From UHGV virus genome UHGV-1756799: 15,469 nt of DNA, one strand, 5' to 3'. Below are positions 1 through 15,469 of this stretch, one piece after another (position 1 is the first letter of the stretch; each line of letters opens with the position of its first letter). The notes under the pieces are model-generated. The model was not told where the DNA came from. It was given only the letters and a program-made list of their open reading frames with translations, and searched no databases. Source of the DNA: a virus. A program made the position numbers and the translations under genes.

Positions 1-115
1 AGAAAAAATAACGTTCACCACCGACCTCTGTCAGATCGATTTCCCAGAGCACCACCTGGGCTGACTGAGTGAGGCGTGTCGTCTCATGATGTGTTTCCTG
101 TGGAATATCCTGCAT
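1..115 (-). CDS. L: Minor tail protein L, N-terminal 38 codons only (gene continues past the window start)
   Basis: Minus-strand ATG at 115-113 preceded by GGAGG; translation MQDIPQETHHETTRLTQSAQVVLWEIDLTEVGGERYFF closely matches the N-terminus of lambda gpL as I recall it; lies directly after M as in lambda. Confidence 0.85.
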   Translation of the reverse strand, partial: MQDIPQETHHETTRLTQSAQVVLWEIDLTEVGGERYFF

Positions 116-124
116 CAGAGCCTC

Positions 125-454
125 CTATGCCACGACCTGTTCAAAATCTGCCGTTATGGTTACCCACAACGCCCCCACGCTTGCCGACCATTTACGACAA
201 ACCACCCTGATCGGCTTCCAGTCATAAGGTGGCGTCCACTGAAATGCGCGGACGCCACCGTGCCGTTCCAGAAAGGCTTTTAAAGATGGGTGTTCACATT
301 TACGAACACGTATCGTCACGCTGTAAGTCGACAACTGGTTATTCAGTCCCGCCGCACGACGCTGTTCATAACCATCGCCAAGCTTCACTGTCACCACTTT
401 CGGCTCTGATACCACATTCATATCCGGGCGCACTTTCCAGTGAAACGTCTCCAT
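125..454 (-). CDS. M: Minor tail protein M
   Basis: 109-aa ORF, same length as lambda gpM, with recognisable similarity along its length (GDGY, HGG, WTPPY, AxFEQVV motifs); start overlaps the H stop as TAATG. Confidence 0.9.
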   Translation of the reverse strand: METFHWKVRPDMNVVSEPKVVTVKLGDGYEQRRAAGLNNQLSTYSVTIRVRKCEHPSLKAFLERHGGVRAFQWTPPYDWKPIRVVCRKWSASVGALWVTITADFEQVVA

Positions 455-3400: not shown

Positions 3401-3519
3401 GAAGACCGTTCTGCATCGCTGGCTGCACCATTCAGAAGGTTTTTGATACGGGGAATTTCATTTTTAAACTCTGCCGCATCAATCCCCAAATCAATGACCA
3501 GGTTGGCTATCTGGTCCAT
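454..3519 (-). CDS. H: Tail tape measure protein (lambda gpH-like), about 1021 aa
   Basis: Very long ORF rich in Q/A/E/R coiled-coil sequence with a Gly-rich hydrophobic segment; the track start at 3549 is TTG, so I chose ATG at 3519 (MDQIANLVIDLGIDAAEF, matching the lambda gpH N-terminal pattern) preceded by GGAGGTG. Confidence 0.9.
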   Translation of the reverse strand: MDQIANLVIDLGIDAAEFKNEIPRIKNLLNGAASDAERSSARMQRFMERQTQAARQTMQAASSAATAASVHAQTVEKSAQAHERMAREVEQTRQRMEALSQKMREEQAQAMALAEAQDKAAAAFYRQIDSVKQASAGLQELQRIQQQIRQARNSGGIGQQDYLALISEVTAKTRVLTQAEEEATRQKVAFIRQLKEQATRQNLSSSELLRAKAAQLGVSSAAEVYIRKMEQAGKATHSLGLKSAAARQEIGVLIGELARGNLGALRGSGITLANRAGWIDTLMSPKGMMLGGVIGGIAASVYGLGKAWYDGQKEGEEFNRQLSLTGHYAGVTAGQLWTLSRAISGNGITQHAAAGALAQVVGSGAFRGNDIGMVARAAAQMERSVGQSVSDTINQFKRLKDDPVNAAKALDNELHFLTATQLEQIRVLGDQGRSSDAARIAMSALAEETGRRTADIDNNLNALGSTLKYLSDLWSRFWDAAMNIGREDSLDEQIAALQEKVSRAKRLPWTASSSQVEYDQQRLNDLQEKKRQKDLQDAKEQAERNYQEQQKRRNAENAALNRMNETEAARHQREIARINSMQYADQAVRDAAIQRENERYEKALASGKKKTREPRNDEATRLLLQYSQQQAQVEGQIAAARQSAGIATERMTEAHKQLLALQQRISDLDGKKLTADEKSVLARKDELIQALTLLDVKQQELQKQTALNELKKKTIQLTSQLAEEERAQRQQHDLDIATVGMGDQQRQRYQVQLSLRQKYQQQLEQLRRDSEQKGTYNTDDYRKAEQALTESLNRQLNENRRYWQQLEVVQGNWKNGVLRAFQDFTVDADNTAGTAEQVFSSAFSNMGNGLATFVTTGKLNFKSFTSSVLSDMAKILAQATMMKSIKGIGSVLGFDLSSLSLNANGGIYQSADLSRYSGTVVNRPTFFAFAKGAGVMGEAGPEAILPLRRGADGKLGVVADIGGSGMAMFSPQYNIEINNDGTNGQIGPAALKAVYDLGKKAAADFMQQQARDGGRLSGAYR

Positions 3520-4218
3520 AACGCACACCTCCGGAAATACCTTCCCCAAGATGCATCAGTTCTTCGTCCGTTCGCTCCGGTATCCCGTTCTCTTCCGGTA
3601 AAAGGCTGAAATCAGCCACCGCAGCATCACTGCTACCGGACACCATTCTCACGATCAATGCCTTCAGCGAGGCAAACTGCGCATCCATCCACACATCACT
3701 GAAGCTCTGCATCCGGAAATAATCGCCCCACTCACCAAGCTCAGTGGCCGACATTTCCGACAGCATCCGCCGCCAGTCTGCCCGCCGGAACTCCCGGGCA
3801 AGCCGCATGACAAACTGCATTTCCCGCGTCAGGACTTTTCCGGCGTCAGCACCTCATGCTCCAAATCCCCGGCATTCTCAATGACTCCCATACCGCTCAG
3901 CGACAGAACCATCTCCGCCCCCGCTCCCAGGGCATCATACGACCATGTTGTAATAACGGATGCGCAAAGCGTCTCAACATCCTGAGACTGTTCCGCATTC
4001 CACAGTGAGCGGGAAACCAGCCAGGCATTGATATCCATCCCCATCCGCAGAAAAGCAATCTGTCGTTCAGCCTCCGGCAGTTCTCCCTCTTCGGCATCAA
4101 ACTTTGCCGTTCGCTGCTGAACAAACGCCAGATATTCAATTCTCTGCAGCCCGGACAGCTCACTGAGCACCACGGACTGCTTTTCATAATTAAACGTGCC
4201 CTGTTTCAGAAACATCAT
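3491..4218 (-). CDS. T: Tail assembly chaperone G-T fusion made by programmed -1 ribosomal frameshift near the end of G
   Basis: The T reading frame (3491-3853) is open and overlaps the 3' end of G in the -1 frame with no credible independent RBS; a slippery-like heptamer GGAAAAG (minus strand, plus coordinates 3835-3841) sits 2 codons before the G stop. G/GT frameshifting is conserved across long-tailed phages. Confidence 0.7.
3829..4218 (-). CDS. G: Tail assembly chaperone G
   Basis: Translation from ATG at 4218 (MMFLKQGTF...SELSGLQRIEYLAF) resembles lambda gpG; strong RBS GGTGGAG upstream; the track start at 4257 is TTG and runs through the V terminator hairpin, so I rejected it. Confidence 0.85.
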   Translation of the reverse strand: MMFLKQGTFNYEKQSVVLSELSGLQRIEYLAFVQQRTAKFDAEEGELPEAERQIAFLRMGMDINAWLVSRSLWNAEQSQDVETLCASVITTWSYDALGAGAEMVLSLSGMGVIENAGDLEHEVLTPEKS

Positions 4219-4231
4219 GTTCTCCACCTGC

Positions 4232-4255
4232 AAAAAAGCCCCGGATAACCGGGGC
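4232..4255 (-). terminator. Intrinsic terminator or attenuator between V and G
   Basis: Minus-strand GCCCCGG-TTAT-CCGGGGC hairpin followed by TTTTTT, immediately after the V stop (4276) and before the G RBS. Confidence 0.6.
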
Positions 4256-4275
4256 AAATGATGAGTATCGTCCTG

Positions 4276-5019
4276 TTAACCTGCGGCGCTGACAGCCACC
4301 GCAGCCACTGCCACAAAATCGCCGTCAGAAGTCATGCCCACAATGCTGACACTGCCCTGCTTCACGCCTTTCACCGTGGCCACAAGCCCGTTCAGGGTCA
4401 CCGTGGCAGTCTGTGGATCTGTCGAATGCACACTGATCGCTTTGTCACTGGCTCCGTCAGGTTTTACTGTAAAGGTCAGCGTGGTGGTTGCTCCCACTTT
4501 TACACTGGCAGATGCCGGTGCCACCGTCAGCCCGGTAACGCTCACTGTTTCAGTGCCTTCCTCTGCCAGATACGGACGCCCCACACCGCTGATTTTCACT
4601 GTGCGGGTCATCACGTCTTTTGAGGCAATGGTTTTACCCAGTGAGCTCAGCCAGCCACGGAAAACATCAACAGTGCCGTTGGGATATTTGATACGAAACG
4701 CGCAGACTTCACCGGAGTCGAACAACTGAACCAGTTTTTTCTGCCCGCTGTCACCCGGACGCCAGGCCAGCGTCGCCGAAGTATCACCGACGGATTTCTG
4801 CCCCTGGGTTGTCGTTTTCCAGTCTGCATCTTCATCATCGAGATAAGTGTCATCTTCTGCATCAGCGGTCATTTCGCCAGGTTGCAGATCCTTCACCATC
4901 GCAAGACGCAGCCAGTCAGTGTCCGATAAAGGGTTCGCAAACGCATCGCCCTTGCCGGTGTACATCCAGAACGTCGTTCCCGCACCTTTCGTTTTTGCCA
5001 GTGGATTTGGTGTGGTCAT
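4276..5019 (-). CDS. V: Major tail protein V with C-terminal Ig-like domain
   Basis: Translation resembles lambda gpV (PNP..KGAGTT, LDDEDADW, FRGW) with a Thr/Val-rich Big_2-like C-terminus; the track start at 5025 is GTG, so I chose ATG at 5019 preceded by AAGGAGGTG. Confidence 0.9.
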   Translation of the reverse strand: MTTPNPLAKTKGAGTTFWMYTGKGDAFANPLSDTDWLRLAMVKDLQPGEMTADAEDDTYLDDEDADWKTTTQGQKSVGDTSATLAWRPGDSGQKKLVQLFDSGEVCAFRIKYPNGTVDVFRGWLSSLGKTIASKDVMTRTVKISGVGRPYLAEEGTETVSVTGLTVAPASASVKVGATTTLTFTVKPDGASDKAISVHSTDPQTATVTLNGLVATVKGVKQGSVSIVGMTSDGDFVAVAAVAVSAAG

Positions 5020-5030
5020 TGCCACCTCCT

Positions 5031-5444
5031 TTAATTCGTGTACGTGATCTGGTACGTGATTTCCGCCATCGCCCAGGTGGCCATCTCATTATCACGTTGA
5101 TAGTTAAAACCGAGAGGGATCAGGGTGTCGATGAGTCCGGAAAGTGCCGGTATATCATTCAGGGCCGGGAAAATGGTGCTCTCCATCCACATATCCAGCT
5201 CTGAATCCGGTGCCTGTGCCCGGATGAAGACAGCAATATGCAGAACAGCCTGCCAGTCATCTTCATCCGTCATTTTTCCGGTGTACTGAGCATCACTCAG
5301 CCACACCGCCACGGCAGGCAGTTCCTGCGCATCAATAAATGCCGGAAGCCCGTCAAAAAACGTGGCGCTGTCTCCACACTGTTCCCGAAGGCGTGCCAGT
5401 ACGGCCTGGCGGATTTGTGTATGTCGGTTCATCGGGTCAGCCAT
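5031..5444 (-). CDS. U: Tail terminator protein U
   Basis: Similar to lambda gpU (ATFFDG.PA..D...PAVAV, DIPALS); the true start may be ATG at 5432 (MNRHTQIRQAVLARL, ATGA overlap with the Z stop) rather than 5444. Confidence 0.85.
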   Translation of the reverse strand: MADPMNRHTQIRQAVLARLREQCGDSATFFDGLPAFIDAQELPAVAVWLSDAQYTGKMTDEDDWQAVLHIAVFIRAQAPDSELDMWMESTIFPALNDIPALSGLIDTLIPLGFNYQRDNEMATWAMAEITYQITYTN

Positions 5445-6007
5445 AACCTCAGTTGTTGTTTCAGTGCATACCCCAGCTGTTTCGGCATTTCCGCAGCAAT
5501 AATGCGGTCGCGGGCATCTTCAAATGCCTGTGTCAGCGGTCCGGACAGCGGGACTTTCACCACATCAATGGGGTAACGATTTTTGCCATCAATACGCCGC
5601 ATCACATGCCAGCGACCATTCGCCAGTTGCTGAATAAACGCATCCCGGAAAAGATATTTACCCACCTTCAGCACACTGCCACGGTACTGCAGTTTTCCAC
5701 CACGCCGGGCCAGTCTGACCCGGGCTGTCCCCAGCTTAATAGCGGGCAGATTGCCCCGGTTAACGCGGATCCTGGCCGTCATTTTTCCTGACGGACTGGC
5801 TTTAAACACCCGGACACGCTGACGTACCAGTTTCAGGGGGATCCCTTTCACCTGGTTATCTCCCGCAACGGTATTCCCGGCAACCTGCCGGGTGGCGACC
5901 GAGACCGCTTTCTGTGCCACACGGTTTATCGCCCATGCGCTGGCCTGTGGCACCATACGGGTATCAAGGCTGTTCAGATTACGGATGGCATTCTCAAGCC
6001 CCTTCAT
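5429..6007 (-). CDS. Z: Tail completion protein Z
   Basis: 192 aa, the same length as lambda gpZ, in the syntenic position; RBS AGAGGTG 5 nt upstream of the ATG. Confidence 0.8.
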   Translation of the reverse strand: MKGLENAIRNLNSLDTRMVPQASAWAINRVAQKAVSVATRQVAGNTVAGDNQVKGIPLKLVRQRVRVFKASPSGKMTARIRVNRGNLPAIKLGTARVRLARRGGKLQYRGSVLKVGKYLFRDAFIQQLANGRWHVMRRIDGKNRYPIDVVKVPLSGPLTQAFEDARDRIIAAEMPKQLGYALKQQLRLWLTR

Positions 6008-6018
6008 CCCACACCTCT

Positions 6019-6294
6019 TTACTCAATAAAGATCATTGGCTTACCGTTAAAACGTTCATGCCGTGTGACCGTCCATTGTTGTCCGTCATAAACAACGCGA
6101 TCCCCGCGCCGTGGGCGGTATCCCGAAGAAAACACCACCAGAGAGACCGCAGGTCCGGACAGAGCATTCAGCTCTGCCAGTGTTTCTCCCGGGATCACAG
6201 TCATATCGACATCATTAATCGAGGCTGTCTTTCCCATCTTTCTGACCGTGATAGCATCCATACGCGCTGCCAGCCGGGAAAAGGGATCAGACAT
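6019..6294 (-). CDS. Head-tail joining protein, lambda FII-like (often annotated in Gifsy-type prophages as ATP-binding sugar transporter-like)
   Basis: 91-aa ORF between the head and tail modules; the RRGD motif and small size resemble gpFII; ATGTCTGA overlap with the upstream gene stop suggests coupling. Assignment is by position and weak resemblance only. Confidence 0.5.
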   Translation of the reverse strand: MSDPFSRLAARMDAITVRKMGKTASINDVDMTVIPGETLAELNALSGPAVSLVVFSSGYRPRRGDRVVYDGQQWTVTRHERFNGKPMIFIE

Positions 6295-6610
6295 TGAGTT
6301 TTACCGGCACTTCTTCTGCACTGGTTCCGGCATCTGCCCAGACAACCCCGACCAGCGGATCAGAGCCGCTGTTAGTCAGCTGAACTTTTCCGGACTTCAG
6401 ATAAACCTTCTTACCCGTTTTCATGTCATCCGTTTTCAGCTTAGGCAGCATAAACACACCTTCGGTCATGCCGTCGCCTGTTTCACCCTGTGGAATATCG
6501 GTCAGCGCCACCGCAAAAACATCGCCCACCTGCACCAGATCTCCGCTGCTGATGGCTGCACTGGCAACAATCGCCACCGTTTTTCCTTCTTCTACAAAAT
6601 TCTTTGCCAT
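6287..6610 (-). CDS. DUF2190-like small head-associated protein (possible decoration or head-completion protein)
   Basis: About 107 aa from ATG at 6610 (MAKNFVEEGKTV...) with RBS GGAGA; the track start at 6655 is TTG and overlaps terminator hairpins. Family assignment is from memory of prophage capsid-adjacent genes. Confidence 0.5.
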   Translation of the reverse strand: MAKNFVEEGKTVAIVASAAISSGDLVQVGDVFAVALTDIPQGETGDGMTEGVFMLPKLKTDDMKTGKKVYLKSGKVQLTNSGSDPLVGVVWADAGTSAEEVPVKLNV

Positions 6611-6653
6611 AACTGTCTCCGCACAGCCCCGTTCAGGGGCTGATTTCAGGTAC

Positions 6654-6673
6654 AAAAAAAGCCCTTACGGGCC
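6654..6673 (-). terminator. Intrinsic terminator downstream of the capsid gene (partial or leaky)
   Basis: Minus-strand GCCC-GTAA-GGGC followed by TTTTTTT, 24 nt after the capsid stop; a second GC hairpin (CAGCCCC-N5-GGGGCTG, 6625-6643) follows. Confidence 0.5.
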
Positions 6674-6696
6674 ATCAGAGTTGTTGTCTGCGACGT

Positions 6697-8655
6697 TTAC
6701 GCCGTACATTTCACCAGACCGCGGTGATCAACTGGCGCGACACCGGCGTCAATACGCACTTTCGTTGTCACGCCATCCACACTGAAGCCCTCCATCTGAT
6801 CAATATATGGCGTATCCACACCGTTGAGATAAGCCACTTCAATCGTATCGGAGCCTTTTGACGCAGCCAGGTAGAAGGTGGTCTGGCTGTTATCATCAAG
6901 ACGAGGCTCTGCAATAACGGTCGCAAAATCTTTCACCGGGTTAATAATACCGGCGTTAATGTCAGCCCCCTTGACACTTGAGGAGCGAATGACCTGGTTA
7001 GCAACAGACTCCATCGCCGTCGGTACCAGTACGAACGCAGGACGAATATTCAGATGACGCTCCCCCTCTTTCTGAACGCGCATCAACTGGCGGGCTTTAT
7101 CCAGCGATGCCACGTCCATTGCAGCGCTCTCCAGTACGTTTGCATGTTTCGCTTTATCGAACAGACTTACATTATCTGTGGAGATTTTCGGGTTAGACGT
7201 CAGAATGGCATAAACCAGATCGGCAATAGTGGATTTCGCCGCACGGCCCAGTTTCATCGGGACATCGGTCAGCATATTCAGATCATCATTGATAATGGCC
7301 TGACGGGTGATACTGAACAGCTCGCCATAGGTCGCCAGTGCAATAGTGGCCTGTTTATCTCCGGTGGTGACGTATTTATATTCCGCCCCTTCACGCACCT
7401 GACGTAGAGCACTGAAGCCCCCCATACCCACACGATGGGCAATTTTAAAATCAGACAACTGACCTTTCCGCGTCCACTGTTCATAGGTTTCAGGGGCATC
7501 TTCCCAGCCCTGCAGAATGGCTTTGTTCGCAACATCCAGCAGAATATTACCGAAGTCAGACGTACTGTGTGTGAACGCCGCACCGACCATCTGCATCGGG
7601 TTATAACCGGAAACCCCAATACCCCGTTCAGTTAGTGACATACGGGCATATTCACGCAGGGTCATCCCGTTGTAGACATTATCACGTTCGGTTTTTTCAA
7701 ATCCGGCACGCGCCATCAGCGCCTGGCGAATCCCGTCCCCCACAAAATTACCGTTACCGGCATAAATATGAGCCGGGGTATTTTTATTGGATGGCGTGGA
7801 CTCGCGCCCCATCTCGTTCAACAGCTTTTCACGGGCCTGCTCCAGCGAACATTCAGGATCGGCAAGACACTGGGCCTGCAGCGTCTGATAACGCCCGCCA
7901 AACATGGCAAACAGATCATTAATACCGTTTACACGCGCTTTTTGCTCTGCCAGTACCTGCGCACGGATACTGTTTTCATCCACCACGGGTGCTGCTGCCT
8001 GCACTGGCGTCCGGGAGGCTGCAGGTTCATCATCCTGTACGCGTGGAGCACTGTTGCGTGGCGGAGTAATCATGTTTCGAATGGATTCCGGCATCTTTTT
8101 AAATTCCTCTGTACGTTTTGACTGAATACATGCCATTGCCTTAACGGCTGGTGTCACCTGATCAGCAAATCCCTGTGCCAGACATTCGGCACCGGACATC
8201 CAGGTCTCATCCGCCAGCATGGCAGCAATTTCATCGGTGGTTTTCCCGGTTTTCTGTGCATAAGCGGGTAACAGAACCGCCTCAACTTTATCGAGCAGGT
8301 CGGCATAGGTGCGCATGTCCTCCGCATCACCGCCCGTAAAGCCAAATGGTTTATGAATCATCATGAAGGAGTTTTCCGGCATAATGACCGGGTTTCCCAC
8401 CATCGCAATGACCGACGCCATTGACGCCGCCACACCGTCGACATAAACGGTAATGGACGCACCATGTGTTTTCAGTGCATTAAAAATGGCGATGCCTTCA
8501 AAGACATCGCCACCCGGTGAATTAATATGGAGATTAATGTGGGTGATATCGCCCAGTGCATTCAGATCACTGATAAACTGCTTCGCTGTAACACCCCAGA
8601 AACCAATCTCGTCATAAATATAAATATCCGCGTCACTCTGGTGACCTGCCTGCAT
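6697..8655 (-). CDS. Prohead protease (ClpP/S49-like) fused to HK97-fold major capsid protein, about 652 aa
   Basis: N-terminal part has ClpP-like sequence (IYIYDEIGFWG...INSPGGDVFEG...MMIHKP); the long C-terminal part looks like a phage major capsid protein; single continuous ORF. The track start at 8916 is TTG and overlaps the portal by 248 nt; I chose ATG at 8655, 13 nt after the portal stop. Confidence 0.8.
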   Translation of the reverse strand: MQAGHQSDADIYIYDEIGFWGVTAKQFISDLNALGDITHINLHINSPGGDVFEGIAIFNALKTHGASITVYVDGVAASMASVIAMVGNPVIMPENSFMMIHKPFGFTGGDAEDMRTYADLLDKVEAVLLPAYAQKTGKTTDEIAAMLADETWMSGAECLAQGFADQVTPAVKAMACIQSKRTEEFKKMPESIRNMITPPRNSAPRVQDDEPAASRTPVQAAAPVVDENSIRAQVLAEQKARVNGINDLFAMFGGRYQTLQAQCLADPECSLEQAREKLLNEMGRESTPSNKNTPAHIYAGNGNFVGDGIRQALMARAGFEKTERDNVYNGMTLREYARMSLTERGIGVSGYNPMQMVGAAFTHSTSDFGNILLDVANKAILQGWEDAPETYEQWTRKGQLSDFKIAHRVGMGGFSALRQVREGAEYKYVTTGDKQATIALATYGELFSITRQAIINDDLNMLTDVPMKLGRAAKSTIADLVYAILTSNPKISTDNVSLFDKAKHANVLESAAMDVASLDKARQLMRVQKEGERHLNIRPAFVLVPTAMESVANQVIRSSSVKGADINAGIINPVKDFATVIAEPRLDDNSQTTFYLAASKGSDTIEVAYLNGVDTPYIDQMEGFSVDGVTTKVRIDAGVAPVDHRGLVKCTA

Positions 8656-8668
8656 CCTGAACCAGGAA

Positions 8669-10177
8669 TTATTCTTCGGACTGGTCGTCGGTGTGCTGCG
8701 GCTCCTGTCGTTTCGTTGCGGCACTGCTGCCTCCTTTATCACTGGCCGGATCGGTATCAAATACCAGATCCAGCTTGCGGTTTTCATCAATTTCGGCCTT
8801 GCGCCGACGTTTGACATCATCCGGATTACGACCACCTGCACGTACCCAGTCTGATTCTGTCGCCGCTCCACCACGAATCTGAATTTTCCAGGCCTCAGCC
8901 TCCTTAACAGGGTCAATCCACGGCATCACCGGTCCGGAATACACCGCGGTATACAGTGAAGAACGATCAAGATCGCGGGGTAGCCTGATAACACCGGATG
9001 CCACAGCCTGTTTCAGCCAGGCACGATACATCGGGCGGGTGACGGCACCAATAAACCAGTCCTGCAGGATCAGGTAGCCATCAGTGGATTCAACCAGCTC
9101 CTGACGCTGGGCGCTGTAAGTGCCGTTATAGTTGCGTGCCGTACTGGAAAAACTCAGACGACTGCCCGCCGCCACGGCACGCAACTGACCATTACGAAAA
9201 GTTTCAAGGTTAGGATTGGGACGATCCGACTTCACCATTCCGATTTCTTCGCCGGGTTTCAGATCGTCGTAAATAATGCCTGGCTGAATGGTAAGCTCGC
9301 GTTCATTCTCCTTGCTGCCATTACCATCCGGTTCATAGCTCTGCCCGTCGCCTTTCCGGATGTACATCCCCAGAGCAGCGGCGATCCTTGCTGCAGTCAG
9401 CTCAGAATCTTCATACTCTTTCAGGGCACTGAGGCGGATCAGCACACCGGACAACAAAGACGTCCCGCGCATCTGGTGCAGACGGCGAACAAATTTAAGA
9501 TGCAGCATTCGCTCTGCATCCACTTCTTTGGTTTCCATCTGCCGCCCGGATACGGGACGGCTTTTATACACCAGATATTTTTCGGGACGCCCCCAGTCAT
9601 CAACAAACACGCCCTGATTCAGCCTGTTGCTCTCATCACTGGTCATGGGAATAAAGTCCGGCTCGAGCGCCTCCAGCCAGAAATGAACACCGGCAGAAGG
9701 CGTCAGGCTGTTTATGCGCCCGGAAACCATCTGGGCAAACACCTCACCATCGCGCAGCCAGGTACGCAGCATCAGACGTTCCAGCATCGGACGGGTAAAC
9801 TGCCCGGTGACTTCCGGACTGACAGACCATTCACTCCATCGGGTGCGTATCTCCGCTGCCAGATCACGGGCAATGGCCCCATTGCGTAATACCGGATGTG
9901 GCTCGACAATAATCCCGTTTTTCCCCACCACCCGTTCTTCCAGCTTGTCAAATACACCAATAACCAGATCGTGGTTGTTATCAAGGTAACGGGCCTGCTC
10001 ACGTAACGACACGGCCCCGTACTGGCTTAACTGGTCGGCAGTTCGGTTTTCCCGCCGGGCTTTGTGTGTCCGTGTCGTTTTTACGGCCTCATAAGCCTGG
10101 ATCACCGCACGGGAACGCAGCCTTGCCGCTTTCCATCCTGGTGAAAAAACGCCAATCACATCATCAAGAATTGCCAT
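8669..10177 (-). CDS. Portal protein
   Basis: About 502-aa ORF between the gpW-like gene and the protease-capsid gene; the track start at 10249 is GTG; ATG at 10177 (MAILDDVIG...) overlaps the gpW-like stop as TGATG. Size, position and acidic C-terminus fit a portal. Confidence 0.8.
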   Translation of the reverse strand: MAILDDVIGVFSPGWKAARLRSRAVIQAYEAVKTTRTHKARRENRTADQLSQYGAVSLREQARYLDNNHDLVIGVFDKLEERVVGKNGIIVEPHPVLRNGAIARDLAAEIRTRWSEWSVSPEVTGQFTRPMLERLMLRTWLRDGEVFAQMVSGRINSLTPSAGVHFWLEALEPDFIPMTSDESNRLNQGVFVDDWGRPEKYLVYKSRPVSGRQMETKEVDAERMLHLKFVRRLHQMRGTSLLSGVLIRLSALKEYEDSELTAARIAAALGMYIRKGDGQSYEPDGNGSKENERELTIQPGIIYDDLKPGEEIGMVKSDRPNPNLETFRNGQLRAVAAGSRLSFSSTARNYNGTYSAQRQELVESTDGYLILQDWFIGAVTRPMYRAWLKQAVASGVIRLPRDLDRSSLYTAVYSGPVMPWIDPVKEAEAWKIQIRGGAATESDWVRAGGRNPDDVKRRRKAEIDENRKLDLVFDTDPASDKGGSSAATKRQEPQHTDDQSEE

Positions 10178-10395
10178 CAGAACCTCGCCAGCCGGTACCC
10201 GGGATGCCCCCGTCGTCGTGTAATCAGAGCCGCAAGGCGGCGCTCCCACTCCTGCCGTCCCTGCCGGATCTCAGATAAGTTTTCCATGGTCATCTGCTGA
10301 CCATTAAAGGTGACGGATTTTCCGTCCAGCACCGCCATTTCAGCTTCCGTATAACGCTGAATCATGGCTTCGATATCATTCTGGTTCATAACCAT
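10177..10395 (-). CDS. W: gpW-like head-tail joining protein
   Basis: About 70-aa ORF ending in RRRGHPGY, resembling the C-terminus of lambda gpW (QRRRGPAGF); the second ATG at 10389 overlaps the terminase stop as ATGA. Confidence 0.7.
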   Translation of the reverse strand: MVMNQNDIEAMIQRYTEAEMAVLDGKSVTFNGQQMTMENLSEIRQGRQEWERRLAALITRRRGHPGYRLARF

Positions 10396-12488
10396 CCTCC
10401 GGAAGTCAGCCAGGGGTTAACATCGTCAGTTACTGTTTTCTTCCGTTTTTGTTTTTTAACAGGCGTGGATACCGGTTCCGGTGTGGGTGACGGTTCGGTA
10501 CTGTCCGGGACACACTCCAGCCAGGTTTCCCGGCTCGCCCACTCCGGTGCATCCGGCCAGCGGATCTTTTCGTATCCATGCAGAATGACCAGAGCCTCGG
10601 CATACACCATCAGGTCAAAAGCTTCGTTGGCACCGCGACCCGGCTTACTCCATTTCCCGTCACTGCTCCGCTCTTCATACGTCAGTTCGTCGTAAAACCA
10701 GCTCCCCAGCCAGTCAGGGAAATGCACATAGCCGGGACCTGGCGAGTCACGCCATAACGCGTTATTCACCCGGTCTTTCAGGGCATCCGTCTGAAGAAGC
10801 CAGAGCGGCACATCACCTGCGGCCTGCGCCCGGCGGCCCGTTCGTCCGGTGTTATCAGGGAATGTACGGCTGATCAGTTTTGCGCGCCGGATGCTGTCAC
10901 CCTTAAACAGGTAAATACGTTTACCAAGGCCATCACGACGGCAACGACGCCAGAATTTATAGGCATTATCAGTGACCCCGTCTTCACCGCCGGAGTCCAC
11001 CGCCATTGCCATCAGTCGCATTTGTTGAGAAGGATCGGAGGCCAGCGGCCAGCTTTTATGAAAAACATCCGTCAGCAGGACATCCCAGTCTTCCGGATAG
11101 CTGGCCGGATCAATTCGCTGGCTCTCCCCGTCGCTGTCACCGCGCAATGACTGCGTGATGTTGTAACGATCAATAATCCAGCGTTCGCCACGGCTGCCAT
11201 AGCCCGTTACCTGAACCACAAAACGGCGATGACGTCCCGCCTGCACATCCACTGTCGCCACAAGGAAATTAACGCCATCCGGCACACTGCGGGAAGGAAC
11301 TGGCTCTGCCCGCTGCTCAAGCAATTCACTTTTTCGTTGCTCCATGCTGGCGCGGGGAAGATAAGGTAATCCCCAGTCGGTATTGATAACCGTCTTGAGT
11401 GTCTCTTCACTTCCGGTTGTCTCGTATTCCTGTTCTGCAGTAAGCAGTTTGTAAACGAGTTGCGAGAGTGTCTGATAAGCAGCTGCCGGACCCTCCATCC
11501 AGAATGACGCAATACGTGAACGCCGGGGATCACCATAACGACTGCCATCTGCATTGATGGATTCACCATCCCGTAACCAGACCCCACGTCCGTTCAGCTC
11601 GCGTTTTTGTTCAGGCAAAATCCGTCCTGAACAGGAAGGACACTGAATATAAGCCGCCTCACTTGCCAGCACAGGATCGGCAATATCACGGAAACCAGCA
11701 ACCACATCGCCGCAGGGCTGAAAATACTCACCACAGTGTGGACAGGGCCAGTACCAGCGACGGCGATCGCCACGGTTATAGAGCGACAGGATCCCCGTGG
11801 TTGGTGGAGCCTCATGCGGTGAAGTCCGTCGCCATTTCACATCCTTCACATCCCTGCCGGGGGAACTCTCCACCAGCGTCATACCACTGGACATAAATGT
11901 GGTGGTACGTTTTGAGGCAAGAGAGAAGGCATCCCCCTCACCATCAATATCTTCCGGAAAACGGTCATAATCCGTCAGCGCCACGCATTTATAATCTGAT
12001 GAAGACATGATATTGACTGACGGCCAGCCGATTTTCAGGTAGTTGCCAGCAAGGAATGTTCTGTCATAAACGTTGTTGTCATTTTTGTTCGGACTCAGGC
12101 GACTGACCACTTCCGGGCTGACGCGAAACGTTCTGGCGAGTCGTTTTTTGGAGTGTTCGCGGGCTTTTTCCTCCGTCATCTGAATGATCAGCATATCAGC
12201 AGGATCGCAAATCACGTTGTAAATCACCCAGCCGTCAATCAGGCCGATAGTCTTGCCGGTTCGTGCCGGGCCAACAAATATCACTGCGTCGTATTCACGC
12301 GAGGCCAGGCAGTTCATAGGCTCAATAACATACGGTGCCACCAGCGGATCCCACGGGACTGAGTTCCCTGCCCCCATAGGCACCCGCATATACTGAGCAA
12401 CGGCATCAGCAACCCGCATTCGTCTCGGTGCGCGAAGGATATAACCTGAATCGGTTCGTGCTGCCTTTGCGGTTTCCTGATTCAGCAT
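10386..12488 (-). CDS. Terminase large subunit, GpA family
   Basis: 700-aa ORF with Walker A-like VGPARTGKT, a CPHCGE zinc-finger-like motif as in lambda gpA, and acidic nuclease-domain residues; start overlaps the small-subunit stop as TAATG. Confidence 0.9.
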   Translation of the reverse strand: MLNQETAKAARTDSGYILRAPRRMRVADAVAQYMRVPMGAGNSVPWDPLVAPYVIEPMNCLASREYDAVIFVGPARTGKTIGLIDGWVIYNVICDPADMLIIQMTEEKAREHSKKRLARTFRVSPEVVSRLSPNKNDNNVYDRTFLAGNYLKIGWPSVNIMSSSDYKCVALTDYDRFPEDIDGEGDAFSLASKRTTTFMSSGMTLVESSPGRDVKDVKWRRTSPHEAPPTTGILSLYNRGDRRRWYWPCPHCGEYFQPCGDVVAGFRDIADPVLASEAAYIQCPSCSGRILPEQKRELNGRGVWLRDGESINADGSRYGDPRRSRIASFWMEGPAAAYQTLSQLVYKLLTAEQEYETTGSEETLKTVINTDWGLPYLPRASMEQRKSELLEQRAEPVPSRSVPDGVNFLVATVDVQAGRHRRFVVQVTGYGSRGERWIIDRYNITQSLRGDSDGESQRIDPASYPEDWDVLLTDVFHKSWPLASDPSQQMRLMAMAVDSGGEDGVTDNAYKFWRRCRRDGLGKRIYLFKGDSIRRAKLISRTFPDNTGRTGRRAQAAGDVPLWLLQTDALKDRVNNALWRDSPGPGYVHFPDWLGSWFYDELTYEERSSDGKWSKPGRGANEAFDLMVYAEALVILHGYEKIRWPDAPEWASRETWLECVPDSTEPSPTPEPVSTPVKKQKRKKTVTDDVNPWLTSGGWL

Positions 12489-12982
12489 TACTCCTCCTGC
12501 TGTAATTCCTCCTCATCATCCGCACCTGCTTCAGTCACCCGCAGGGCTATCTGATCGCGCAGATCATCAATAATGGACTGAACACGGCTCACAGCGGCAG
12601 GCTGCAGACCGCAGTCACGTTCAAGAATATCCGGTAATGTCTCCAGCACCTGCACGACCGCTTTTGCCCAGATGGCAAACTCCCGTCTGACATCACTGGC
12701 CGGAATGAGTTGTGCCGTTTCCTGTTCGAACTTAAGACGCTCACGTTCAGACTGATACCAGGCTTTGCGCTCATGCGCGTCCATTTCGCCTTCTGCAACC
12801 GGCGGTGGTAATGCCAGAAATGCCGACACAATATCAACCACCCGATAAAGCTTGAGGTTGCTTTCATGCCCCCCTGCAACGGGTAGATTTTGCAGCCTTG
12901 CCGCAGCAGTCTGGCGATGTACACCTGACAATGCCGCCAGTTGACTGATATTCAGCGTCAGATTTTTTAACTCTCGATCCAT
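12488..12982 (-). CDS. Terminase small subunit (Nu1-like), N-terminal HTH
   Basis: 164 aa directly upstream of the large terminase; N-terminal helix-turn-helix-like segment (LNISQLAALSGVHRQTAAARL) and acidic C-terminus; RBS GGAG 5 nt upstream. Confidence 0.75.
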   Translation of the reverse strand: MDRELKNLTLNISQLAALSGVHRQTAAARLQNLPVAGGHESNLKLYRVVDIVSAFLALPPPVAEGEMDAHERKAWYQSERERLKFEQETAQLIPASDVRREFAIWAKAVVQVLETLPDILERDCGLQPAAVSRVQSIIDDLRDQIALRVTEAGADDEEELQQEE

Positions 12983-13085
12983 ACCCGCTCCAGAATGTTT
13001 TAAACATGCATCTTGCGAACAACTTTAGGCAAACGGTGTTAGTGATGAACAAAAAACAATCAGAATCGACACCATAAAAATAAAT

Positions 13086-13116
13086 CCACTGTAATATCAA
13101 TCAATTACAGTAGTGG
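13086..13116. promoter_or_regulatory. Imperfect inverted repeat with an embedded IHF-consensus match (candidate cosB-type terminase/IHF binding region)
   Basis: CCACTGTAAT...ATTACAGTAGTGG inverted repeat; TATCAATCAATTA (13095-13107) fits WATCAANNNNTTR; lies between the GC-rich element and the small-terminase start. Confidence 0.35.
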
Positions 13117-13159
13117 TGATGACGAATAAAATTTCAAAAACTAGCCTTTTTCCGCGACG

Positions 13160-13192
13160 CTCCCGCCCCGTGGCAGGGGCCCCCACCGGGAG
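13160..13192. promoter_or_regulatory. GC-rich nested palindrome, candidate cosN-like terminase cleavage site
   Basis: CTCCCG-CCCC-GTGGCA-GGGG-CCCCCAC-CGGGAG: outer CTCCCG/CGGGAG and inner GCCCC/GGGGC inverted repeats in a sharply GC-rich island inside AT-rich DNA, about 180-210 bp upstream of the terminase small-subunit start, comparable to cos-Nu1 spacing in lambda. Confidence 0.35.
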
Positions 13193-13197
13193 GACCC

Positions 13198-13220
13198 GAC
13201 AGCCTGACAGCCTGACAGCC
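13198..13220. repeat. Tandem direct repeat, about 2.9 copies of the octamer GACAGCCT
   Basis: gacagcct gacagcct gacagcc read directly from the sequence, adjacent to the palindrome. Confidence 0.85.
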
Positions 13221-13356
13221 GTGACGAGCATCTGATACAGCGCTTTACATAATGGCATAGGAATAATTCAGAAGGACATCACAGCATGCCCACACAAATT
13301 AGTGTGAGTGTCCTGTTTCTTCCTACGCACAGGACTGACGAGCATGAGGGGAAAAT

Positions 13357-13524
13357 ATGCGAACCATAAATGCCTCATCTTCAGCAATGCAGCCGGCATC
13401 CGAACAGGACGATATTGTAAATTCACCTAATTACGAGGACATTGCAGTAGTTGAATTGCAGCTCTGTATTAGCCTGACAGTGACAGAATGCGATATTGAC
13501 TCTGTCACAGGTGAAATAGTTTGA
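13357..13524 (+). CDS. Hypothetical small acidic protein, 55 aa
   Basis: Not in the ORF track (below 60 aa). ATG at 13357 with GAGGGG 5 nt upstream; translation MRTINASSSAMQPASEQDDIVNSPNYEDIAVVELQLCISLTVTECDIDSVTGEIV. No homolog recognised; it converges on the 68-aa ORF with only 20 nt between stops and no terminator. Confidence 0.25.
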   Translation: MRTINASSSAMQPASEQDDIVNSPNYEDIAVVELQLCISLTVTECDIDSVTGEIV

Positions 13525-13544
13525 ATGATTAGCAGTTATGGTGC

Positions 13545-13751
13545 TCAGTCAACCACCAGGGAATAATCCTTCGAATTCTTATCGTGCTTCACCAACGCTG
13601 CCTCAATTGCCCTGAATGCTTCCAGAGACACCTGATGTTCTATACATGCAATTACAACATCCGGGTAACTCATAGAAATGGTGCTATTAAGCATATTTTT
13701 TACACGAATCAGATCCAACGAGAGTTCATCAGCAGATTGTTCTTTATTCAT
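13545..13751 (-). CDS. Hypothetical small protein, 68 aa (possibly the counterpart of K-12 Qin ynfO by position)
   Basis: ATG start with GGAG 7 nt upstream; lies between the terminase/cos region and the ydfO-like gene, where K-12 Qin carries a small gene between nohQ and ydfO. I do not recognise the sequence itself. Confidence 0.45.
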
Positions 13752-14051
13752 TTTGTCGCTCCATGCGTTTGCTCGTCATCTAGCGGTTAAAATATTACTT
13801 CAAATCTTACTGCATAAAAGAGGAAAAGTATGAAAGTTTGAGTACATCGACCTTACATACATCTGTCGGTTGCATATCCCTCCTGGATGCCAGCAAGGCT
13901 CAATTTTGTTACGCAATCAACACTATTCATTAAAAACAGGCTTAATATTTGACATAAATCATCAACAAAACACAAAGAGGTCAGACCAGATTAAAACAAT
14001 AAACACGATAATGCAAACTACGCGCCATCGTATCACATGGAAGGTTTACCA

Positions 14052-14462
14052 ATGGCTCAGGCTGCCATTTTTAAAGAAATATTCGATCAAGTGCGTAAAG
14101 ATTTAAACTGTGAATTATTTTATTCTGAGCTAAAACGTCACAATATCTCACTTTATATTTACTATTTAGCCACAGATAATATTCACATTGTGTTAGAAAA
14201 CGACAACATAGTGTTAGTAAAAGGACTCAAAAAGGTTGTAAATGTTAAATTCTCCAGAAACAAACATCTTATAGAGACCTCCTATAATAAGTTGAAATCA
14301 AAAGAAATCACATTTCAACAATACAGGGAAAATCTTGCTAAAGCAGGAGTTTTCCGATGGGTTACAAATATCCAGGAACACCAAAGATATTACTATGCCT
14401 TTGATAACTCATTACTATTTACTGAAAGCATCCAGAAAACTACACAGATCTTACCACGCTAA
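14052..14462 (+). CDS. ydfO: YdfO-like protein (DUF1398 family), prophage moron
   Basis: 136 aa from the second ATG ([11 protein letters not shown]...), which has GGAAGG 7 nt upstream; the first ATG at 14037 lacks an RBS. Matches my recollection of K-12 Qin YdfO and its position next to gnsB and the Nu1-like gene. Confidence 0.6.
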
Positions 14463-14470
14463 ACCATAAC

Positions 14471-14499
14471 GTCCGGCTTCTCTCACTCCTGAGCCGGAC
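14471..14499 (+). terminator. Hairpin downstream of ydfO-like gene (weak candidate terminator)
   Basis: GTCCGGCT-13 nt-AGCCGGAC, 8-bp stem beginning 9 nt after the stop; large loop and no clean T-tract. Confidence 0.3.
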
Positions 14500-14551
14500 T
14501 GCATTGGTTTAATAAAAACCATCAACAATTGTGATTTAGATATTCGGAACC

Positions 14552-14574
14552 ATTCAAATATAACAAAACCCCGT
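14552..14574 (-). terminator. Candidate intrinsic terminator for the gnsB-like gene
   Basis: Minus-strand CCUCG-UUUUUA-CGGGG (one G-U pair) followed by UUUUGUU, about 40 nt after the gnsB-like stop. Confidence 0.4.
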
Positions 14575-14613
14575 AAAAACGAGGTTTATGGATAAATTTT
14601 ATTATTGAATACA

Positions 14614-14790
14614 TCAGATTAAATTAATCTTGACATCATAGCTTTCAAGACCCGTCATTTTTTCCCGTGCGGTAAACTGAATACTGGTAACTTCTTTCCC
14701 GGTCTTTTTCTTAAGTTCAATAATTTTTTTTGTTATATATTCAGAAATATCTGCTTCTGCTTTTGTTTTTAAGTTTTCAATATTCATCAT
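14614..14790 (-). CDS. gnsB: GnsA/GnsB-family protein, 58 aa
   Basis: Not in the ORF track (below 60 aa). Translation MMNIENLKTKAEADISEYITKKIIELKKKTGKEVTSIQFTAREKMTGLESYDVKINLI; the FTAREKMTGLESYDVKI segment matches E. coli GnsA/GnsB as I recall them; RBS AAGAGGAAA upstream. Confidence 0.8.
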   Translation of the reverse strand: MMNIENLKTKAEADISEYITKKIIELKKKTGKEVTSIQFTAREKMTGLESYDVKINLI

Positions 14791-14958
14791 TTCCTCTTTT
14801 AGTCTGTTATGACTTTCCAGTTACACAGTAAGTCGATTATATGGTGCAAACGTGTAAAAGATAAGATGAAACATCGCAATAATCAACATACGATAGTCTA
14901 AATTTTACACAAACAGACAAAGAGAATTTTCCTGAATTATCAATACAATAGCATCAAA

Positions 14959-15189
14959 TCAACTCAAGAGCCTTATTGCTGCTTCCAGAATTTCTTCTGA
15001 AGTAACATGTCGATCCGCGGCTACATAAATGACTTTATGATCTCCGGTCAGAGATGGAAACCCTGCGGCCATTACAGTAAGGTGTGTTTTTTCGCCATTT
15101 GGATATTCACGCATGATGGTGTTAACTCCAGTCATCGCTGGCACTACCACTGCTGGTTCAGAGTTAAAAAAAACTATGATTTTTTTCAT
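14959..15189 (-). CDS. Small protein, 76 aa, upstream partner of the gnsB-like gene (YmcE/YnfN-like by position and size)
   Basis: ATG at 15189 (MKKIIVFFNSEP...); the track start at 15231 is TTG and lies in the terminator. Same strand as and 168 nt upstream of gnsB, like ymcE-gnsA and ynfN-gnsB in K-12. Weak RBS; sequence not recognised with certainty. Confidence 0.5.
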   Translation of the reverse strand: MKKIIVFFNSEPAVVVPAMTGVNTIMREYPNGEKTHLTVMAAGFPSLTGDHKVIYVAADRHVTSEEILEAAIRLLS

Positions 15190-15233
15190 GATGTTACCGT
15201 AGTATGTGAGTATCCATCGAATAGATACCAAGC

Positions 15234-15253
15234 AAAAAAGCTCCCGAAGGAGC
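15234..15253 (-). terminator. Intrinsic terminator (possibly bidirectional)
   Basis: Minus-strand GGCUCC-UUCG-GGAGC(C) with a UUCG tetraloop followed by UUUUUU; the plus-strand side is also followed by T-rich sequence. Immediately after the stop at 15262 of an upstream minus-strand ORF. Confidence 0.6.
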
Positions 15254-15261
15254 CTTCATTT

Positions 15262-15418
15262 TCACTTTTTTAAATCCAACGACAGACGGCTGGCATTTAA
15301 GTATTGTGAAATATTATCAAATGTAATCATCATTGATTTACAAAAGATACATTTTGCCCCGAAAGGATTCATGTCAGAAACATCAAAAGATGATGTTCTA
15401 TACTGGGAACCATGACAA
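15262..15418 (-). CDS. C-terminal fragment of an unidentified minus-strand gene (truncated by the contig end)
   Basis: Open minus-strand frame ending at TGA 15262-15264 (...YRTSSFDVSDMNPFGAKCIFCKSMMITFDNISQYLNASRLSLDLKK) and followed by a strong terminator; the track ORF 15262-15447 extends into adapter sequence, so only 15262-15418 is genomic. Confidence 0.25.
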
Positions 15419-15469
15419 CTGTCTCTTATACACATCTCCGAGCCCACGAGACATCTCAGGATCTCGTAT
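15419..15469 (+). other. Illumina Nextera (Tn5 mosaic-end) adapter read-through; not biological sequence
   Basis: CTGTCTCTTATACACATCTCCGAGCCCACGAGAC, then an 8-nt index-like ATCTCAGG, then ATCTCGTAT (start of the P7 sequence). Confidence 0.95.

Follow-up and report, generated by a model that had tools for sequence, protein, structure and literature searches.

What is the AT-rich segment that adjoins the packaging genes of a lambdoid phage genome, and does it carry anything beyond what is already known from related prophages? This question is raised by UHGV virus genome UHGV-1756799, a DNA stretch of 15,469 nucleotides (nt; hereafter, the window), in which structural genes are followed, at positions 12983-15418, by AT-rich DNA with small genes (hereafter, the island). 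A preliminary description, based on the letters of the window and its open reading frames (ORFs), interpreted this segment as a moron island whose gene order parallels a block of the defective Qin prophage of Escherichia coli K-12 but which is attached to an apparently intact morphogenesis operon. Comparison of the window with sequenced genomes and protein families indicates, with a high degree of confidence, that the region corresponds to the non-essential right end typical of lambdoid phage chromosomes, i.e., an accessory ("moron") block located between the lysis cassette and the cohesive-end site (cos), followed by the gene for the small terminase subunit (TerS), in a full-length Qin-type E. 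coli prophage. The alignments show the block to be a mosaic of known cassettes, namely a mEp460-type TerS gene with its spacer, a lambda-like cos, the ybcW/DUF1398 gene pair of lambda and the K-12 prophage DLP12, and the gnsB-ynfN-ynfR-ynfQ cassette of Qin. The coordinates of all features are given in Table 1.

The right end of a full-length Qin-type prophage

From position 1 to position 15419, the window is identical (100.000% identity, with zero mismatches or gaps) to a portion of the chromosome of E. coli 118UI (NZ_CP032515). The respective prophage of 118UI (within 1812000-1861000) is located between a truncated ydfJ gene and rspB, the site that is occupied by Qin in K-12. The early part of this prophage includes int, xis, exo, dicB and ydfD, followed by repressor and cro-like genes; the part preceding the island contains hokD, rem, ydfU, Q (ydfT), cspF, cspB, the lysis genes (essD-ydfR-rrrQ-rzpQ) and cspI; and the part following the island consists of the genes for TerS, the large terminase subunit (TerL), the portal protein, a protease-capsid fusion, tail proteins, J, lom, the tail fibre, tfaQ, pinQ and ydfK. 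An IS200 element adjoins the tail-fibre gene. In 118UI, the island lies downstream of the lysis genes and directly before cos and the TerS gene, and the right end of Escherichia phage Tritos (OV696610; prophage 3 of the adherent-invasive E. coli strain LF82; PMC9928086) shows the same order. Just past the end of the contig, the Qin cold-shock block runs on into cspI, as seen in 118UI.

The packaging, head and tail genes form a contiguous series of 14 coding sequences (CDS), none of which is flagged as a pseudogene in the identical RefSeq record of 118UI, and the TerL protein, with 700 amino acids (aa), contains the Pfam GpA ATPase and nuclease domains. The structural module (window 1-12389) is 95.6% identical at the nucleotide level to that of Tritos, a plaque-forming phage. 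The attachment of the island to an apparently intact morphogenesis operon is thus upheld, and the identification of an AT-rich accessory region adjoining the packaging genes of a lambdoid prophage is likewise supported.

Pairwise alignments delineate the individual cassettes. The match to K-12 Qin is limited to positions 13974-15419 (94.2% nucleotide identity), where it covers ydfO-gnsB-ynfN-ynfR-ynfQ; K-12 DLP12 and lambda match positions 13399-14481 (89.9% and 89.4% identity, respectively), which correspond to the ybcW/ybcV pair and its divergent spacer; and Tritos matches positions 13169-15419 at 99.8%. When Qin, DLP12, lambda, Tritos, phi458/mEp460 and E. coli genomes are compared, no segment of the island is left without a known counterpart. 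At least 80% of the island is present in 440 of the 5426 complete E. coli genomes, and 346 records match it at 99% identity or higher.

Table 1. Features of the island and its boundaries (positions refer to the window)
Feature	Positions	Strand	Evidence
Small terminase gene, DUF1441, mEp460/phi458 type	12488-12982	-	Pfam E 2.7e-41; phrog_141 "terminase small subunit" E 7e-74
AT-rich spacer, cos to TerS start	12983-13134	-	GC 0.342; 10-bp inverted repeat/hairpin at 13086-13113
cos core (putative), GC-rich	13135-13230	-	Tritos junction and cosN/cosQ-like motifs
Unannotated 55-codon ORF	13357-13524	+	Full-length phrog_4035 match, E 1.2e-41
ybcW homologue, 68 aa	13545-13751	-	91% aa identity to DLP12 YbcW; phrog_657 E 5e-47
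PdhR box in the divergent ybcW/DUF1398 spacer	13975-13991	-	Exact match to DLP12 17-mer ATCTGGTCTGACCTCTT; 0.01 expected by chance
DUF1398 gene (ybcV/ydfO family)	14052-14462	+	Pfam E 2.2e-43, profile positions 1-119 of 119
9-bp GC-rich hairpin between convergent DUF1398 and gnsB; candidate bidirectional terminator	14471-14499	.	Minimum free energy -21.9 kcal/mol, z -5.7, 0/200 shuffles as stable
Intrinsic terminator after gnsB	14566-14587	-	9-bp stem followed by U-run
gnsB	14614-14787	-	Pfam GnsAB_toxin (PF08178) E 3.3e-35, profile positions 1-54 of 54; 100% aa identity to K-12 GnsB
ynfN, full-length, 76 codons	14959-15189	-	RefSeq "protein YnfN" WP_000720962; phrog_3425 over 76/76 positions
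ynfR, 21 aa	15194-15259	-	95% identity to K-12 YnfR; overlaps hairpin and U-run 15232-15256
Hairpin and U-run just downstream of ynfQ	15232-15256	-	Overlaps ynfR
ynfQ/ymcF-like gene, cut	15262-15419	-	Pfam YmcF-like E 5e-23, profile positions 12-62 of 62
Illumina Nextera adapter read-through, non-biological	15419-15469	+	Exact 34-nt match to CTGTCTCTTATACACATCTCCGAGCCCACGAGAC, then ATCTCAGG and ATCTCGTAT

Composition and extent of the AT-rich region

The sharp shift from GC-rich to AT-rich DNA that had been noticed by eye is borne out by sliding-window GC content and by comparison of GC content at third codon positions (GC3). The GC content is 0.378 in 12983-15419 compared with 0.536 in 1-12982; windows of the same size inside 1-12982 (n = 211) span 0.513-0.561, with a standard deviation of 0.012 and none below 0.513, which places the region about 13 standard deviations under their mean. 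In 500-bp windows, GC content stays at 0.49-0.58 until about position 12750 and at 0.31-0.45 from position 13000 to the end, and GC3 is 0.28-0.42 in the island genes versus 0.50-0.57 in the terminase, portal, capsid and tape-measure genes. The AT-rich DNA is interrupted only once, by a GC-rich spike at 13135-13230 (GC 0.677, that is, 0.68), and this spike is cos. The low GC content probably reflects a foreign, mobile origin of the cassettes, and their AT-richness would make them targets of H-NS.

As described previously, small genes are encoded in both orientations: ybcW, gnsB, ynfN, ynfR and ynfQ on the minus strand and the DUF1398 gene on the plus strand. The latter is the only gene on the plus strand, possibly along with the unannotated 55-codon ORF, and six of the seven RefSeq-annotated genes are located on the strand of the late operon. 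The end of the island at 15418 was also placed correctly given that the adapter sequence begins at 15419; because of this adapter, all alignments and homology stop at 15419 and the ynfQ/ymcF gene is cut. Matches of at least 99% between the query and records from Streptococcus, Bacillus, Listeria and other phages are probably due to the adapter as well.

A repeat search of the region returned short two-copy matches and nothing more, an Rfam scan of 12400-15469 at E <= 1 detected no RNA families, and the island proteins showed no meaningful match to NCBIfam. Among the PADLOC defence models, the sole match is a weak and partial one, of the DUF1398 protein to REase_II (17.9 bits, E 4e-4), that was judged to be spurious.

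cos and the packaging module

The cos regions were compared by local pairwise alignment and direct reading. The ends of the deposited linear Tritos genome join at window position 13168/13169. The cosN-like 12-nt end, GGGCGGGAGCGT (the reverse complement of 13157-13168), coincides in 8 of the 12 bases with GGGCGGCGACCT, the cohesive end of lambda, and a cosQ-like heptamer, GGGTCCT, the sequence of lambda cosQ, is the reverse complement of 13191-13197. The heptamer lies 22 nt from the end compared with 23 nt in lambda, so that the minus strand reads GGGTCCT, 22 nt and, beyond the junction, GGGCGGGAGCGTCGCGG, whereas lambda reads GGGTCCT, 23 nt and GGGCGGCGACCTCGCGG. Repeats of GACAGCCT are located at about 13198-13222. 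Given the Tritos junction and the motif spacing similar to that in lambda, a lambda-like cosN and a cosQ-like heptamer can be recognized in the spike; a lambda-type cos thus appears to be present, with a putative cleavage site.

The AT-rich spacer that separates cos from the start of the TerS gene is 96-99% identical to the corresponding sequences of mEp460_4F5, phi458 and 569R4 but is not alignable with that of Tritos. The TerS gene and the spacer taken together (12488-13134) show 98-99% nucleotide identity to phi458, vB_EcoS-569R4, mEp460 and mEp460_4F5, and the two travel together as a single module. The mosaic breakpoint with respect to Tritos falls at 13134/13135, 34 nt into the left cohesive-end region, and cosN and cosQ are common to both phages. 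Replacement of the TerS gene and the spacer with retention of cosN and cosQ would be expected under the lambda paradigm of TerS-cosB specificity; by the same analogy, the spacer, which corresponds in position to cosB of lambda, would represent the cosB side of the site and probably plays the role of cosB. The island accordingly consists of two parts that meet at cos, namely the right end of the virion chromosome with the accessory genes and the short cosB-side leader of the packaging operon.

Genes of the island

The gene adjoining the spacer had been described as Nu1-like. This protein is a DUF1441 small terminase subunit: a Pfam search detects no similarity to Phage_Nu1, with DUF1441 being the sole family found, and the amino acid identity is 42% to the TerS of Tritos and 25% to NohA over 145 aa (E 0.013 in a search of 12 sequences). 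The next, small gene, which had been set in parallel with ynfO, turns out to be a homologue of ybcW on the opposite strand; it is annotated as a CDS in Tritos and in 118UI, where it is labelled "hypothetical protein". The DUF3950 gene ynfO/ylcI is absent from the island according to Pfam, protein comparison and alignment. Given the presence of a DUF1441 TerS and ybcW and the absence of ynfO, the left half of the island belongs to the DLP12/lambda type, not to the Qin type. The parallel with the Qin gene order therefore stands for ydfO-gnsB-ynfN, which are homologous (at the above nucleotide identity), and is purely positional for the first two members of the series.

The unannotated 55-codon ORF sits in the slot that is occupied by the DUF3950 gene ylcI/ynfO in DLP12, lambda and Qin. 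It is not annotated in RefSeq and shows no match to Pfam or NCBIfam. The 3' half of this ORF overlaps a block conserved in lambda and DLP12 that includes the inverted repeat TGACAGA...TCTGTCA, and indels in this block break the frame, so that the ORF may be non-coding. Each ORF of the island, this one included, is assigned to an existing PHROG family.

The DUF1398 gene is the sole annotated gene antisense to the late operon. With an alternative start at 14037, its product would consist of 141 aa. The protein is 89% identical to YbcV of DLP12 and 77% identical to YdfO of Qin, and it is similar to the PDB entry 2HH8 (YdfO) with an E-value of 1.4e-69. In the databases, this gene goes under conflicting names, i.e., "head protein" (phrog_413 and the HK629/HK630 RefSeq records), "putative envelope protein" (lambda-type records) and "DUF1398"; no support for a structural role was found in this analysis. 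The PdhR box in the spacer between this gene and ybcW stands at the left limit of the Qin homology (13974).

The ynfN gene is longer here than in K-12. Its leader contains a T8 run in the window, 118UI and Tritos, yielding 76 codons, and a T7 run in K-12, where only the last 51 codons are annotated; over these 51 aa, the protein is 100% identical to K-12 YnfN. Homologues of the same 76-aa length in Citrobacter and further members of the Enterobacteriaceae, including those with identity as low as 52%, retain the additional 25 N-terminal residues (MxKVxVFFNS...), and the most distant of them lack the internal methionine that is used as the start in K-12. In a confident AlphaFold model of YnfN, three of the five strands are located at residues 2-28; a search of PDB with this model did not find a fold relative. 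There is good support for the view that a frameshift has reduced the reference YnfN of K-12 to a 51-aa remnant, with the loss of nearly three of the five beta-strands of the model. The adjacent ynfQ/ymcF gene is represented in the window by 158 of its 189 nt and encodes a protein identical to K-12 YnfQ over 51 aa (100%); the complete gene spans 15262-15450 in 118UI.

Expression and regulation

Misson et al. (2023) have already reported morons in the Tritos block on the basis of RNA sequencing (RNA-seq) (PMC9928086). In the LF82 lysogen, the normalised values in LB medium are approximately 274 for gnsB, 955 for cspI, 51 for ynfN and 32 for ybcW (PMC9928086, Table 1, S1, S4), and in the same experiment approximately 14 for TerS, 8 for TerL and 6 for endolysin (PMC9928086). 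The gene in the gnsB position, LF82_0907, yields transcripts at a level 27-fold over the prophage background (PMC9928086), and the gene in the ybcW position, LF82_2580, is upregulated about 30-fold in macrophages (log2 fold change 4.94; PMC9928086, S4). Given that the gnsB, cspI, ynfN and ybcW transcripts far exceed those of the silent late genes in the lysogen, these genes are likely to possess their own promoters and not to depend on the late operon for transcription, the criterion by which PMC9928086 defines morons. Judged by its length and its distance from ybcW, the moron denoted "YnfN" in that work (LF82_0907, 1610202-1610375, 174 nt) is gnsB; within this block, the S1 Table lists products one gene out of register, and the actual ynfN is LF82_3578 (156 nt).

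Data for the homologous K-12 genes provide additional clues. In a K-12 pdhR mutant, the mRNA levels of ybcV and ybcW drop about 10-fold, and a PdhR box is present in the spacer between these genes (PMC7660256). A YnfR-SPA fusion is induced by cold shock (PMC6001520). Overexpression of the T4 protein MotB elevates DLP12 ybcV and ybcW expression more than 1000-fold (PMC7827196), a result that is compatible with H-NS control but is confounded by prophage induction. Overexpression of GnsB increases the content of unsaturated fatty acids and restores the growth of cold-sensitive mutants at low temperature (Sugai et al. 2001, as cited in PMC10607373; bioRxiv 10.1101/2024.03.27.586906). The annotations of both K-12 and 118UI designate CspI as a cold-shock protein.

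These observations are compatible with the following scenario. After circularisation, Q-antiterminated late transcription on the minus strand would proceed from the lysis genes through cspI, ynfQ, ynfR, ynfN, gnsB, ybcW and cos to the TerS and TerL genes, as predicted from the lambda paradigm and the gene orientation; because this transcription would cross the region towards the terminase genes, the island would be read through in lytic growth. In the lysogen, the cassettes would be expressed from their own promoters while the late genes are silent, and the PdhR box in the ybcW/DUF1398 spacer would go along with the PdhR-dependent activation seen in K-12 DLP12. The lysogen would probably benefit by adjusting its membrane lipids and RNA physiology to cold or other stress.

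Alternative interpretations

Several observations weigh against the view of the region as the accessory right end of an intact prophage with autonomously expressed genes. The window is a 15.5-kb contig, so that the location of its prophage in the chromosome and the intactness of the remaining prophage genes are read via the 118UI twin. The preliminary description assigned each gene its own promoter-like and terminator-like signals; in a consensus scan, however, neither promoter-like sites (9, compared with 8.4 +/- 3.2 in shuffled sequences) nor terminator-like sites (3, compared with 1.6 +/- 1.3) rise above the shuffles, so that the case for autonomous transcription rests on RNA-seq data from LF82, a different strain whose prophage is nearly identical. 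Despite the lack of overall enrichment, three hairpins (14471-14499, 14566-14587 and 15232-15256) are individually convincing, the first of these being a candidate bidirectional terminator. The DUF1398 gene of LF82 is at approximately 9 in LB, against a background of approximately 10, with a modest increase in macrophages (PMC9928086), so that the genes of the block do not all behave as morons in LB. Furthermore, the GnsB phenotypes come from overexpression, and YbcW, the DUF1398 protein, YnfN and YnfQ have no assigned function, so that the fitness benefit is one that we infer. The co-orientation of six of the seven annotated genes with the late operon, the non-enrichment of promoter-like sites and the background-level DUF1398 transcript would all fit late-operon passengers that are not morons and are transcribed only by lytic read-through from pR', with the low GC content reflecting ancestry. 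However, in LF82 the expression of gnsB, cspI, ynfN and ybcW exceeds that of the neighbouring terminase and lysis genes by 3- to 90-fold and responds to conditions separately from them, and the Qin and DLP12 copies in K-12 are expressed and regulated (by cold shock and PdhR) without a functional late operon, which makes the passenger status of these genes unlikely.

A functional rather than transcriptional alternative concerns gnsB, which might encode the toxin of an addiction module that stabilises the prophage, with the antitoxin encoded by a small neighbour such as ynfN. The protein is called "GnsA/GnsB family addiction module toxin" in Pfam and RefSeq, which points in this direction, as does the location of the 76-aa ymcE directly upstream of gnsA in the chromosomal cspG-ymcF-ymcE-gnsA locus, the position held here by the 76-aa ynfN. 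Nevertheless, the block encodes no YmcE homologue, YnfN is unrelated to YmcE and its gene lies 171 nt away from gnsB without overlap, there is no PADLOC match, and gnsB overexpressed from the ASKA collection rescues growth instead of killing the cells; we consider such a module to be decidedly improbable. The block might instead be part of a cryptic, Qin-like prophage in decay, with no working phage attached; this possibility is raised by the defective state of its nearest textbook relative, K-12 Qin, and by the IS200 element next to the tail-fibre gene of the 118UI prophage. It is very improbable considering that none of the 14 CDS for packaging, head and tail is disrupted in the identical RefSeq record, that the module is 95.6% identical to its counterpart in Tritos, a phage that produces both virions and plaques, and that the 118UI prophage retains int, xis, repressor-like genes, Q, the lysis genes and J. 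Finally, a novel cassette specific to this prophage could be suspected because neither 12983-13134 nor 13231-13398 can be matched to K-12 Qin, DLP12 or lambda, and because the 55-codon ORF is missing from the RefSeq annotation. This suspicion is refuted by the presence of 12983-13134 in the isolated phages phi458, 569R4 and mEp460_4F5 (96-99%), that of 13169-15419 in Tritos (99.8%), the complete identity of the island in 118UI and its occurrence at 99% identity or more in 346 E. coli records, and the assignment of the ORF to an existing PHROG; a cassette of this kind is extremely improbable. The accessory right end of a lambdoid, Qin-type prophage remains the best explanation of the region.

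Comparison with known systems

The closest characterized relative is Tritos, which undergoes spontaneous induction, produces plaques on MG1655 hsdR- and has been imaged as a siphovirus (PMC9928086). It shares with the window the order cos, ybcW, DUF1398, gnsB, ynfN, ynfQ, with 99.8-100% identity over 13135-15419, and differs in 12390-13134 (TerS and the cos-side spacer), where it carries another allele that differs as extensively as noted above for TerS. The novelty implied in the preliminary description is thus not sustained: the island is collinear with, and nearly identical to, that of a characterized prophage and contains nothing additional. That description was accurate and its parallel with Qin largely right; the object itself is ordinary, widespread and already known. 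The discovery value is accordingly small because hundreds of E. coli genomes and a characterized phage contain this textbook-type block without change. The use of the analysis is mainly clerical, in that it shows the undeleted form of Qin, places cos, flags the adapter at the contig end and suggests that the reference YnfN of 51 aa represents a shortened allele of a 76-aa protein.

The right end of lambda and DLP12 (ybcV-ybcW-ylcI-cos-Nu1/nohD) has in common with the island the divergent ybcW/DUF1398 pair, its spacer, the PdhR box, the location before cos and the cosN and cosQ motifs. In DLP12, borD precedes ybcV, whereas the block in the window lacks both bor and ylcI and its TerS belongs to a different family; unlike in lambda and DLP12, gnsB-ynfN-ynfR-ynfQ-cspI stands here between ybcV and the lysis genes. 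The phages mEp460, phi458 and vB_EcoS-569R4 possess the same packaging module (TerS and spacer), but their accessory regions match only in part; e.g., in mEp460_ev081, the match extends over 68% of the island, with 91% identity.

The chromosomal locus cspG-ymcF-ymcE-gnsA of K-12 is paralogous at both ends to the cold-shock part of the block, with the same gene order and strand, about 74% nucleotide identity between cspI-ynfQ and cspG-ymcF, and about 73% between gnsB and gnsA. The middle of the locus differs, with ymcE in the chromosome and ynfR and ynfN in the phage showing no similarity, and whereas ymcE and gnsA overlap, a 171-nt gap separates ynfN from gnsB. A comparison of YnfN with YmcE, both of which consist of 76 aa and are encoded upstream of a gns gene, reveals no similarity. 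It is conceivable, although rather doubtful, that cspI-ynfQ-ynfR-ynfN-gnsB is a mobile phage version of the cold-shock and lipid-remodelling locus cspG-ymcF-ymcE-gnsA in which YmcE has been replaced by the unrelated YnfN, which would act together with GnsB in adapting either the lysogen or phage development to the cold.

The relationship with Qin itself extends beyond the island. The two prophages occupy the same chromosomal site (ydfJ...rspB), and the Qin segment from ydfO to hokD is 98.7% identical to that of 118UI. Within the block, which in Qin consists of nohA-ynfO-ydfO-gnsB-ynfN-ynfR-ynfQ-cspI, the genes from ydfO to ynfQ are homologous and the GnsB, YnfN (over 51 aa) and YnfQ proteins are identical; however, the DUF1398 allele of Qin is only 77% identical, its ynfN is cut to 51 codons by the T8-to-T7 change, and in place of the DUF1441 TerS, cos and ybcW it has a Nu1-type nohA and the DUF3950 gene ynfO. 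On both sides of the missing segment, Qin is 98.6-98.7% identical to the 118UI prophage, whereas the approximately 23 kb of 118UI from the N-terminus of the tail fibre to ybcW, including the tail, head and terminase genes, correspond in Qin to only about 1.4 kb with nohA and ynfO. Thus, the window shows a full-length relative of Qin, in which a Qin-like block is joined to an intact morphogenesis operon.

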